From assembly GCA_964016885.1 (NCBI GenBank), contig OZ024742.1, forward strand, positions 188,914,001 through 188,978,000: a DNA stretch of 64,000 bases, in the 5' to 3' direction. This document shows, one piece after another, positions 6,548 to 27,672 of this stretch (positions within the stretch are counted from its first letter, which is position 1; each line of letters starts with the position of its first letter). The DNA comes from Eledone cirrhosa. Its lineage: Eukaryota. The notes under the pieces were generated by a model. That model was given only the letters and a program-made list of their open reading frames with translations, was not told the origin of the DNA and ran no database searches. Made by a program: the position numbers and the translations under genes.

Positions 6548-6963
6548 TAAGATCAAAAGATGGTTAAAGGAGTTCCATATATTTTATTGTGCGCATTTCA
6601 AAAACAAACATCATCAAGCAATAATATTTGTGTTTTCATCAGATAAAACAGGAGAACATGATATGAAGGCTAAAAAACACTTGTGGATAGTGCAGTTTTA
6701 AATCAACATATGTTGATTTAAAACTGCACTATCCACAAGTGTTTTTTAGCCTTCATATCATGTTCTCCTGTTTTATCTGATGAAAACACAAATATTATTG
6801 CTTGATGATGTTTGTTTTTGAAATGCGCATAATAAAATATATGGAACTCCTTTAACCATCTTTTGATCTTATATTATGCATACTCCAGTCCCGCAAACTG
6901 TAGAGTGCTTCTTATCCGATATCTGCATTGCTTTATTGTACTACAATAAAACTCACCTCCTAC
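6548..6963. mobile_element. Spacer-less palindrome (162-bp arms, axis 6709/6710) of PLE pseudo-LTR plus a one-sided tail of about 85 bp
   Basis: 6548-6709 is the reverse complement of 6710-6871 (one mismatch noticed). Same sequence family as 23187-23352 and 27215-27672. Confidence 0.92.
6771..6837 (+). ncRNA. Minimal type I hammerhead ribozyme motif (mirror copy about 6582-6648 on -)
   Basis: TTTTAT-CTGATGA-stem II (aaacacaaat../..gtttgttttt)-GAAA-TGCGCA-TA-ATAAAA. Confidence 0.88.
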
Positions 6964-7924
6964 ATATATATATATATATATATATATATATATATATATA
7001 TATATATATATATATATACACACACACATATATATATATATATATATATATATATATATATGTGTGTGTGTGTGTGTGTGTGTGTGTGTGTGTGTGTGTG
7101 TGTGTGTATGTGTGTGTGTGTGTGTGTTTGTGTGTACATGCACAAAACACATATGAAGTAGTGATCATCATGTGGTACAGCGAAAGACAGAAGTTAACAT
7201 GCAGGTCGCCACCTCCCATGTCCAGCCAGTGGCTGTAAGAGATACAGCAATCTATCCCGTACTACGCTAAGACCGAAAACGGCAAACTGCTGAACTCCGT
7301 ATGTGGAGGGGTGCGGATAGAGACAGGATGTTGTAGTGGTGGCGAGTAAATGTTGAAAAGCATTTACATTCAACGGGAACCTAACACCGATAATAGGCCT
7401 CCAGGAGCACAGTGCCGCAAACAGGAAGTAAACGCACACATGCACCCTCAAGCGAGCGCCATCTAGTGTTGGGTGTCGATGGTGTGGGATGTATAAGAAT
7501 TTGAATATGCGTATACATATACCCACTCACTTATACATACATGCATCTAAAAGTGGCTAGTGATGGTATGTAAGTGGAATGGCTTTTGGAGGTGATGTGT
7601 ATATATGTACACATGCAGGTTTGTGTGCATAGAGGGCTTAATTGATAGTGTTGTTGGGCCGATGGATCAAATAGGGTGGATATACACCTGTGTGAGGGAC
7701 AATGTAAAGATTACGTGTGTGTAGAAGTCTATATACGTGTGTGTGTTGCTTGGTATACACAGATGTGTGTGAATATGTGTATACTGTTATGGTGGCTTAT
7801 GGCATATATATATATATATATATATATATATATATATATATATATATATATATATATATAATCCTTATCGAGCCCACTTCGGATTTTAGTTTTATATATA
7901 TATATATATATATATATATATATA

Positions 7925-8312
7925 TATGAATGTATATATAATGTATTTTGCAATACACTTTATGATTAATTAAAAACATTTTGAAGACCGTATGCTATTG
8001 TTTTAGAGTAGTGACAAACTCACTTACTTTAATCTCAGCAAACAATTATTTACTAGAATTCTATAAGAATATAACATCAGTGATCTCAGTAGACAGGAGG
8101 GAGTAGTTAGCCTTGATAAGCATCAATAAATGCGAAACAAGACATTTTCGGCTTATCTCCCCTTGTTTGCTGAGATTAAAGTAAGTAAGTTTGTCACTAC
8201 TCTAAAACAATAGCATACGGTCTTCAAAATGCTTTTAATTAAGCATAAAGTGTATTTCAAAATACATTATATATACATTCATATATATATTGGTATTTCA
8301 GAGCTCCAATTC
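7925..8312. mobile_element. Inverted-repeat element (about 120-bp arms) with an HHR variant in its spacer
   Basis: 7925-8045 pairs with 8163-8283; the same family forms a palindrome at 10999-11177. Confidence 0.8.
8109..8153 (+). ncRNA. Hammerhead motif with U3/A8 core variant
   Basis: AGCC-TTGATAA-GCATcaataaATGC-GAAA-caagacatt-TTC-GGCT. Confidence 0.6.
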
Positions 8313-9204
8313 TAATTTATATATATATATATATATATATATATATATTTATATATATATATATATATATATATATATATATATAGATATATACATATGT
8401 ATGTATGAATGTATGTATGTGTGTATGCATATATGTATGCATCTGTATATGTATATACATACATGTATGGCTGTGCACCATGAAGAAAGCAATTATCGTC
8501 AGTTTTCAATAGTTGATATATGTATGCCTTCAAATATTCTAAATATATATAGAAATAGCTTCGCTGTTTACTATTTTTTGACATAATTATTTAAAGACAT
8601 TTTCAGAATATTATCATTCTAACTAACTGAATATCTTCAAGATATTTTCATAAATTGATCAACTCTCTTCCCCTCTTCCTCTATTTCTCTCTATATCTCT
8701 GTTTCTTTTCTTTCTATCCTTCTCTCTTTGTTTCTCTAGTGAGTTTTGTTTATGTTACGATTAATTTGTCTCTTTATTCTATTACTTAATTTCATCGTTT
8801 TTTTTCGTTTTTTCCTCTCTTTCTTTCACACTCATTCTCCTTTCTCTTGTCCTCTATGTCTTTTTCTCCCAATTTAACTGTTTATTTTACTAGTTCTCTC
8901 TTTCTCACACACACTCTCTCTCTCTCTCTATCTATATATATATATATATATATATATATATTTGTGTGTATGTGTGTATATATATATATATATATATATA
9001 TATATATATATATATATATATATATATATATATATATATATATATATATATATATATATATATATATATATATATGCATATATATACAAAATTAATATCG
9101 ACACGCTACTAATGTATTCATTGCTTCACTTACTCTGATTACCCCCGATTGAACCATGGACACACACACACACACACATACACATATTTTTATTTATATA
9201 TATA

Positions 9205-9919
9205 CTAGCTAAACTACCCGTCCATTGGACGGTTCAACTAGCTTTCGATGTAGCTCATTAAACTAAACAAAGTAAATTTGAATACATATGTAGAAGAAAA
9301 AAACGTACTTTATGTAAACATGAAAACCTTAGGCACTATTCCAGCGAACTAATTAATATGTGAGCACGGTGTCTTTTTTGACAACAGTAAAAGCGCATCA
9401 TGAAATCGAGAAGTGAAGTGAATAATAGACACTATTATGTACAAAGCATAATATCGTAAAAGTTATGCCATCACTTAATGTATGAACATCAAGCTTGAAA
9501 CGATAAATTATACAATGTCAAATCTATAACTTAACTTAGTAATCTGTTAGAAATTGCTGGTTGTGAAATATACAAAATGATATTGTTAGTCTCAAGGAAG
9601 CGTACCTTTTGTTTTAAGTTCAAAGAGTAAATTAAAATCCGAATGAGCCGAATTACGAAAGATAACTCTTGTCTCACTTAAAGATTACTCTTGGCTTACT
9701 TAATCACGAAAATTGACACAAATAAGCGAAATTTGTTAATGTCTCCAAAGGCCCCAATATCGATTTTTGAAAGCCTTTGTAGATCATGTATAGGTGTTGT
9801 GCAAGGAGAAGCTCTGTAAAAAATTTCAAAGAAATCGCATGAATGGTTTAGAATATATGAGCCCTCATAAAAAATTGTCCACACACATACAAAAAACTTC
9901 GTCTTTATATATATACAGA
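9205..9919 (-). mobile_element. Non-autonomous Helitron
   Basis: Minus strand starts TCTGTATATATATAAAG after an A and ends with hairpin CCGTCC-aat-GGACGG, 9 nt, then CTAG followed by T (A|T target, no TSD). Confidence 0.75.
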
Positions 9920-26300: not shown

Positions 26301-27108
26301 ACATGGAATGGACATCTGTCTGTATCGACGATGACTCTACCAGTGGTTCGATTAGCGTTTTTGATTTGGTCACCGGCCCCCTCACTGGCACATAATACCT
26401 TTAGCGTCCCTCACCCCTATTTCCAGAGACACCTGCCTACATGCAAATTGTAAGTAATATATAATAAGTAAAATTGTTAATTTATGTATAATAAATAATA
26501 TATATATATTATATATAAATAGATATTATATATTTTTTATTTTACTATATTTATATATGTATCATTTGATTTTAATTGACAATTATATCATCGCTACCGA
26601 CTTCCCGACTTCCACTCTTGACGAAAGAGTTAATAAAACAATAGTGAGATTATTCAAAAGATTTCTTTAAAAGTGAAACACACCCCTAACAGGTAGATTG
26701 TTCGGGACTTCAACTCGCCCCAGTTGAGACAATCACCAAACAAGGACACCATAAATACTTTACTCAGTAACCTTTCTCCCACAACCACTACTTCACCTAT
26801 GTCTCCAATTAACCTACACGTCAATTAAATTAGCACCCCGCCCCTGAAAAGACGGGGTTTCGAAAGAGCTGAAAGAAAATATAAATTCGGTTAAAGAGGT
26901 CAGCCGTCGGGCAGTATCTCTTTAAAATATATATATATAAACGAGTGAAAGAGAGAAATAAATAGAAATGCTTATCTATTTAGTCACGTATGTCTTCATG
27001 TGTGGGTATATATATATATATATATATATATATATATATATATATATATATATATTTATATATATATATATATATTATTATTATGTAATAAACAACATAA
27101 GGCAATTA

Positions 27109-27167
27109 TTCCATTTACCAGTGGTTTCTTAAAAGCAAAAGGTTTTGCTTTCAATCCTCAGAATGAA
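27109..27167 (-). ncRNA. Type I hammerhead motif in a short island between (TA)n tracts
   Basis: TTCATT-CTGAGGA-TTGAAAGCAAAAccTTTTGCTTTTAA-GAAA-CCACTGG-TA-AATGGAA. Confidence 0.8.
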
Positions 27168-27214
27168 AAATCCTGGTTTGTATATATATATATATATATA
27201 TATATATATATATA

Positions 27215-27672
27215 TAAGATCAAAAGATGGTTAAAAGAGTTCCATGTATTTTATTATGCGCATTTCAAAAACAAATATCATCATGCAATAACATTTGCGT
27301 TTTCGTCAGATAAAATATGGAGACATGATATGAAGGTTAAAACACACTTGTGAATAGTGCAGTTTTAAATCAACATATCATATATATATATTGATATATA
27401 TATGTTGATATATATATGTTGATTTAAAACTGCACTATTCACAAGTGTGTTTTAACCTTCATATCATGTCTCCCTATTTTATCTGACGAAAACGCAAATG
27501 TTATTGCATGATGATATTTGTTTTTGAAATGCGCATAATAAAATACATGGAACTCTTCTAACCATCTTTTGATCTTATATATTATTTATACTCCAGTCCT
27601 ACAAACTGTAGAGTGCTTCTTATCTGATATCTGCATTGCTTTATTGTACTACAATAAAACTCACCTCCTACA
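27215..27672. mobile_element. Second palindromic copy of the 6548 family with an AT-rich spacer and the same tail
   Basis: Arms about 27215-27378 and 27414-27577; HHR at 27477-27543 (+) with core CTGACGA and a mirror copy on -. Confidence 0.92.

Follow-up and report, generated by a model that had tools for sequence, protein, structure and literature searches.

Inverted arms of a Hydra-clade Penelope-like element in Eledone cirrhosa: a possible record of paired priming on linear and circular RNA

A stretch of 64,000 nucleotides of the Eledone cirrhosa genome (GenBank assembly GCA_964016885.1, contig OZ024742.1, positions 188,914,001 to 188,978,000 of the forward strand; hereafter, the window) contains two hairpins and a coding Penelope-like element which share one repeat. 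Why should inverted arms of such a repeat begin at the same base, and only one arm of each pair carry a tail? Judged from the DNA of this single assembly, from which the whole mechanism discussed here is read, the hairpins are truncated head-to-head insertions of an abundant Penelope-like retrotransposon of the Hydra clade. Their common boundary, numbered +1 (the first A of ATATGTTG, at window positions 6708, 23188 and 27414), limits only those copies that have their 3' end no more than about 260 nt away: long copies pass through.

An earlier sequence-only reading of the locus assigned the palindromes and the coding element to one family with a common start position, and five related arms were indeed found, at 6548-6711 (-), 6708-6871 (+), 23188-23352 (+), 27215-27378 (-) and 27414-27577 (+), all beginning at ATATG (+1). 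Arms are of two types: T arms, with a tail, end near +258, and N arms, tail-less, end near +164 to +168. In hairpin 1, both the N arm (6548..6711, minus strand, next to a (TA)n flank) and the T arm (6708..6871, plus strand) span +1 to +164, overlapping by ATAT at 6708-6711; a tail of about 92 nt follows (6872..6963, plus strand), which in full units continues into the start of the open reading frame (ORF). Hairpin 2 consists of an N arm of an older subfamily (27215..27378, minus strand) and a T arm running from +1 to the end of its tail (27414..27671, plus strand; tail at 27578-27671). Inverted arms are present in both, but hairpin 2 is not a clean palindrome, its centre being occupied by 35 nt of filler (27379..27413). 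This filler comprises stretches of AT, stuttered repeats of the bases with which the arm begins, and one additional C, which on the minus arm corresponds to a G before +1. As originally reported, the left arm stops at TAAGATC, here adjoining (TA)n, and the tail is found on the right only, in both hairpins; arms differ at 1 and 2 sites within hairpins, and at 11-16 between them.

The coding element is present and belongs to the same arm family, but it is a 5'-truncated copy (20953-23352) which begins at unit position 1677, lacks the reverse transcriptase (RT) core and carries an arm identical to neither hairpin. Its truncated ORF (20953..22016, plus strand) encodes the thumb, an Asn-rich insert, a CxCx5C linker and a GIY-YIG-type endonuclease. 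The 3' untranslated region (UTR; 22017..23187, plus strand) contains duplicated segments, ends in a pyrimidine-rich stretch (TTTTC) just ahead of +1, and is a putative promoter region by analogy with PMC2377424. The terminal arm (23188..23352, plus strand), tail-less and followed by (TA)n, is identical to the arms of young ORF-linked copies; hairpin 1 differs from it at 3-4 sites and by one gap. All three copies contain a predicted hammerhead cut, after +124/+125 on the arm. In the T arm of hairpin 1, the type I motif (6771..6837, plus strand) is composed of stem I, a CTGATGA core, a long stem II, GAAA and a stem III formed by palindromic TGCGCA, with the predicted cut after 6831; the equivalent positions are 23312 in the coding copy and 27537 in hairpin 2. 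The N arm of hairpin 1 (6548..6711) has the motif with C replacing the U before the cut site.

Genome-wide, the family is very abundant. In 3.0 Gb, the 3' anchor of the hairpin family has 19,627 exact matches (about 19,600 3' ends), and a 22-mer at the arm start has 11,147, far beyond chance: reversed-sequence controls gave 0 here, as for the other exact counts of this family. The motif TTYTC of the body, i.e. the 3' UTR and ORF upstream of +1, precedes 4,672 of the 11,147 arm starts; G is found directly before +1 in 2,111 of the 6,475 non-body matches.

The boundary was examined in the first 100 consecutive 3'-anchored copies on contig 1. As many as 31 start at -1..+3, 40 extend into the body, 3 start at -6..-2 and 26 are spread over +4..+134. 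The fixed fold-back point previously proposed thus exists as a sharp hotspot at +1, but not as the only inversion point: in 12-13 long pairs the points are scattered, as opposed to 18 short pairs, which bears out half of the refutation that the sequence-only reading had set itself. Three copies with starts at +93 (G000:C1:9945608, 11271216 and 20531648) diverge from the family upstream of that position, where they share a motif, and may represent a sister family with another boundary.

The boundary reads TTTTC|A, a pyrimidine-purine step such as is found at Pol II starts. In a Drosophila element, transcription starts inside the upstream repeat (PMC2377424). A second sample, the first 100 arm starts, was divided into 52 body and 48 non-body cases (2 of the latter body-like when read), and 33 of these 48 lack a perfect centre. 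G precedes +1 in 15 of the 33 imperfect junctions, compared with 19% G in the partner strand, an excess suggesting a copied cap; this reading is kept at the level of a suggestion because many of the G's can be read from the partner arm or from an internal CATGATATG site, which counts against it. Stuttered first bases or similar filler, as in hairpin 2, occur in 6 of 75 distinct junctions and would fit slippage at the end of a template. We regard +1 as probably a capped transcription start. Other assignments were rejected: only 1 of 100 copies starts at the predicted hammerhead cut (after 6831 in hairpin 1), a second hammerhead cut at +1 could not form stem III on inspection, and a splice acceptor would lack its AG. 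A bacterial promoter scan returned a chance-level result, irrelevant here. Where an inversion junction falls in one of the element's T runs, it has often grown into a long A/T run (L229:3332-3357, L073, L220), suggesting slippage while joining.

Pairing of the two arm types is nearly strict. Among 48 short hairpins with both arms long enough, pooled from several searches and hence not a random sample, 46 are T+N, 2 are N+N and none is T+T; in an unbiased list of pairs, T+N accounts for 28 of 31. The proposal that both arms are copied from one template finds support in their divergence, 1.4% within elements and 6.9% between them, and in a tree where left and right arms do not cluster separately, T and N arms being interleaved (32 label changes, 25.7 in shuffles). 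The two arms of a copy were identical when it was born. Every subfamily includes hairpins, and these match the arms that are linked to an ORF in that subfamily: a single change separates hairpin 1 from an ORF-linked arm, and the first 80 bases of hairpin 2 are also found before the ORF start at C5:35098141. These sequence comparisons make it very probable that the arms arise by two primings, with run-off at the 5' end of the RNA.

Copies in which the arm continues via the tail into the ORF behave differently. Of 111 such copies, 107 retain TC directly ahead of +1, as counted with a somewhat shorter 3' key; of the three exceptions listed, one has a mutation at its body junction, another ends at +346 and the third is rearranged. 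When arm-to-ORF copies were read directly, the 3' UTR was found upstream in 30 out of 30. A pause site or a linear full-length template is unlikely, because either would halt long copies as often as short ones; a structural pause at +1, which would act at every pass, was rejected. The first 100 of 257 ORF starts were then classified: 59 pass +1 (22 read directly, 37 by pattern), 4 from one mini-array were set aside, and 37 stop within the arm or tail, 10 at +242..262, 9 at +153..170, 3 at +124..132 and none at +1. Among 1,000 simulations under a uniform distribution, in which the windows could be placed anywhere, none attained 19 stops. A replication set of 12, from which two mini-arrays and six body copies had been excluded, has 3 stops in the tail zone and none at +153..170. 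Pooled, 13 of 49 stops lie at +242..262, the tail start site one unit round, vs 3.9 expected (P ~1e-4), and 0 of 49 in-arm second-pass stops are located at +1. Post hoc, stops in +153..241 were seen in 15 of 32 N copies and in 0 of 13 T copies.

In four mini-arrays, each found at one locus within the ORF-start lists, the repeat-ORF junction recurs as short direct repeats, both in the T arm and in the N arm of a pair. Their units span +126..601 (L334, 2 copies, junction on the predicted cut, second arm ending at +201 in the flank), +129..333 (L306, 4 copies), +142..319 (L427, 2 copies) and +160..346 (L414, 8 copies, the six full units being identical). Repeats are identical within an array, the same odd junction is present in both arms, and the arms are unequal in length, each ending mid-unit. 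No unit contains +1..+124 or the ribozyme core, all beginning downstream of the hammerhead cut, and in all four the two start sites are retained, together with 60 nt or more past the tail. Two enzymes circling one small circle would most simply account for these sequences; a DNA circle or a lost tandem source could also have produced them. A five-unit array is likewise bracketed as one T/N insertion, with 0-6 substitutions among its units and 53-56 relative to another copy. The long copy L429 jumps from the cut region to -39 via 9-10 nt of microhomology.

The following mechanism is proposed. A protein dimer would nick both strands of a (TA)n target, and two reverse transcriptases would prime on the opposite strands, copying one RNA from two start sites, near +168 and +258. 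Both sites would require about 60-75 nt of downstream sequence, available only at the 5' repeat of a linear transcript. On linear capped RNA, both copies would run off the 5' end at ATATG (+1), and their 3' ends, joined through short microhomology or filler, would yield short hairpins. Hammerhead cleavage at +125 in both repeats would instead release a unit-length RNA, closed or jumped end to end; a circle, having no 5' end, would give long and tandem copies, and rolling round the unit would regenerate the promoter-bearing upstream repeat. That the long copies were made on a circular or end-joined template is probable, and we favor the whole model, somewhat less firmly, over its alternatives. 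More tentatively still, the genome may preserve the Penelope replication cycle in fossil form. Both strands of the target would be primed by a dimer, from two fixed sites on a single RNA molecule; capped RNA left uncut would give dead-end strong-stop hairpins, and a hammerhead-cut circle would be copied as a rolling circle by both subunits at once, which would rebuild the pseudo-long terminal repeat (pLTR) and promoter, give the hammerhead its purpose and let retrozyme-like arrays be born from small RNA circles.

Several observations weigh against this model. All the evidence is DNA, the RNA ends and the RNA circle being deduced from it. The hammerhead monomer fold is no more stable than shuffled sequences, and stops are not enriched at its cut (3/37, P 0.13); in the lizard element, according to the accessible text of the report, the hammerhead is dispensable in vitro and no RNA reads end at its cut (PMC11167929). 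The excess at the tail-less start site (9/37 at +153..170) failed to replicate (0/12), so that only the tail-zone excess stands. Two of the four mini-units start 16 and 34 nt past the cut, with junction microhomology of 1-3 nt, and for these reasons mini-units might derive from template jumps or a DNA circle. Finally, loss of the centre of palindromes after insertion could mimic unequal arms.

The alternative which survives best, in our opinion an unlikely one, is a retrovirus-like strand transfer, in which the cDNA, having run off at +1, would jump across to the repeat at the 3' end of the same linear RNA, hairpins being failed jumps and no circle being needed. The arm is in fact the terminal direct repeat of the transcript, and unit-length stops at the start site and identical arms within an insertion are predicted equally well. 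Yet about half of first arrivals stop at +1, compared with at most 2 in 100 second arrivals, which would call for RNAs that either always or never permit the jump; furthermore, all four mini-units begin past the hammerhead cut and none at +1.

On another view only the hairpins result from run-off: tandems would derive from existing arrays that are read through, or from new insertions of the element into the AT-rich repeat that it carries itself, and endonuclease cuts would account for the stops near +165 and +258. Tandem insertion has been published (PMC2377424), as have, in the accessible part of another report, multi-copy mRNA and cuts at AT-rich repeat DNA (PMC11167929), and the two stop zones are indeed rich in AT. 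If transcripts were linear and began at +1, however, full-length copies would be expected to start there; such copies are nearly absent, and promoterless single-locus mini-arrays in both arms are difficult to account for; we consider this explanation quite improbable.

In fold-back, or self-priming, one cDNA or antisense RNA would turn back on itself at CATATG, and the first arm would serve as the template of the second; the version with antisense RNA has been proposed for rotifer elements (PMC3846280). The 716 perfect palindromic CATATG centres counted genome-wide by exact match, the likeness of arms within elements and the common inversion point of several long pairs are in line with it. Among the first 100 arm starts, however, an N arm at +1 has a shorter T partner in 8 cases, while the reverse, a T arm at +1 with a shorter N arm, occurs in 2. 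In 4 of the 8 pairs the T piece falls entirely within the tail: these pairs share no common sequence, and therefore neither arm was copied from the other. Simple fold-back is thus contradicted for non-overlapping pairs; together with the imperfect centres of 33 of the 48 non-body starts and the unequal, mid-unit ends of mini-array arms, this leaves it very unlikely. A large nested palindrome, L366 (G000:C4:36621000-36627500), contains one inverted junction twice and may record the copying of an earlier inverted element.

Least credible of all is that hairpins are a non-autonomous palindromic element copied whole, or that arms are kept alike by gene conversion, as the sequence-only reading had allowed: despite the high copy number and 10 private changes common to both arms, 51 private changes are confined to one arm, arms of old copies are up to 8% apart, and the varied centres, asymmetric ends and occurrence in every subfamily, with arms matching the ORF-linked ones, are not those of a miniature inverted-repeat transposable element (MITE) or self-copying palindrome derived from one master structure.

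Full copies of the family comprise a 3,900-nt unit, in which a single 821-codon frame, starting just after the tail, encodes an RT (YRDD) plus, at the C-terminal end, a GIY-YIG-type nuclease (LIY...YFG), as expected of endonuclease-bearing Penelope-like elements; these assignments come from alignment with 7 homologues, a Pfam search of the ORF having returned no RT or nuclease match. Partial tandems (pLTR), an inverted 5' copy and an optional tail are further features of such elements, as is the predicted hammerhead in the pLTR, whose core and stems were found by pattern and by fold; an Rfam search gave generic hairpin matches only, below gathering score, with no hammerhead family among them. 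Membership of the Hydra clade is indicated by the motifs RWT, DKT, CNCRIKNKC (CxCx5C), CNLC (CxxC) and CLH (CxH), by the lack of CCHH and by insertion into (TA)n; RWT replaces the RWK or RWR of homologues, 27 of which, one named from a cephalopod, were found at 30-42%. The nuclease region of the window is encoded at 100% identity in at least 148 genomic places (150 scored), and for this reason the family is considered young. About 70 residues rich in Asn, Ser and Thr precede the CxCx5C linker (window 21350-21570; L068 ORF), have no counterpart in most homologues and resemble the Asn-rich inserts of rotifer elements. The family does not qualify as a retrozyme of the non-LTR type (without long terminal repeats): the hairpins are inverted, and mini-units begin past the hammerhead core.

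In LINE-1 twin priming, primings on opposite strands lead to a head-to-head inversion joined by microhomology; there the second primer anneals internally and the pieces do not overlap, whereas in the present family the two arms are copies of one and the same end, each begun at its own fixed site. Closest to the present family are the Hydra-clade elements of Craig et al. 2021 (PMC8557442), which, in the text available, share the C-terminal GIY-YIG-type nuclease, RW and DKT motifs, CxCx5C linker, CxxC and CxH, as well as the hammerhead, (TA)n target, inverted 5'-truncated partner and one-end tail. Their listed units are shorter (1.1-3.0 kb vs 3.9 kb), as are their tails (30-40 nt vs about 92 nt); the Asn-rich insert, RWT in place of RWK and a hammerhead unlike any listed there, including that of Hydra-1_Obim, set the present family apart, and the available text describes neither a fixed boundary nor a pairing count.

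PAc, a Poseidon element of the green anole, has been shown in vitro to cut and extend both strands, using two internal start sites, and to need 54-61 nt of downstream ORF RNA; a dimer is predicted (Frangieh et al. 2024, PMC11167929, accessible text). Here too, two internal start sites flank the tail, and the at least 60 nt beyond the tail in mini-units are close to the PAc requirement; the PAc sites showed no strand preference in vitro, in contrast with the near-strict one-each use found here. In the accessible text the word "circular" is absent, and inverted copies are left unexplained. The inverted pLTRs of Adineta vaga Penelope elements (PMC3846280, in part) are similar in their head-to-head repeats, junction palindrome, optional tail and Asn-rich inserts; self-priming on an antisense template was proposed from few copies and without statistics, while the pairs described here favor two primings. 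For non-LTR retrozymes (PMC7229834; bioRxiv 10.64898/2026.07.22.740005, both in part), hammerhead-cut RNA circles are proposed as templates of tandem cDNA, with Penelope-like elements as suspected mobilizers; retrozyme units each contain a hammerhead and are amplified, whereas mini-units lack the core and occur once each. A review (PMC6765202, as far as accessible) proposes a circle for Penelope-like elements speculatively, with oligomeric RNA rather than the circle as the inserted template, and contains no genomic test. Already known from publications are the inverted repeats, the tails on one side only, the hammerheads, the (TA)n targets and the use of two start sites; a full-text literature search, most subscription papers being beyond its reach, found no report of copies running off at a fixed boundary, of each start site being used once per pair, of stopping confined to the first pass or of mini-arrays shared by the two arms.

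A second, unrelated hammerhead-bearing family is represented in the window by a head-to-head pair (40410-41010), of which the left arm alone carries a tail, about 70 nt long. The family has 9,571 3' ends in the genome and follows the same tailed/tail-less rule: T+N was found in 20 of 20 short pairs, and an arm ceiling near ACTATCC in 19 of the 20, 5 pairs beginning within 2 nt of it; these pairs were selected at a spacing below 370 nt, a choice that itself limits arm length. With the anchor placed upstream of the boundary, no boundary was seen (1/30 non-body). Two hammerhead-like motifs with a CTGAAGAT core, back to back on opposite strands at 3021-3145, are probably an inverted pair of a third family, and single motifs with a plausible stem I lie at 35182 (+), 42352 (-) and 27161 (-).

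Elsewhere in the window, broken frames with a DKG motif at 9925-11030 resemble the RT of another Penelope-like clade, without a Pfam name. Several long minus-strand RT frames at 53368-63250, some broken by stops, may be of the RTE type of LINEs, which they resemble. A 14-nt tandem array and a GGT-rich minisatellite occupy 13040-17000 and 18900-20750; the long frames there are artefacts of these repeats.

The family adds a new member to a known clade, and the debris it has left allows a mechanistic question to be put to the test. Being young and present in thousands of copies, it turns predictions into counts, and it assigns exact coordinates to the proposed start site, to the pair of priming sites, to the junction of the circle and to a minimal cis element (+160..+319). 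The finding points to a sister group of telomerase that would copy RNA circles into chromosomes.

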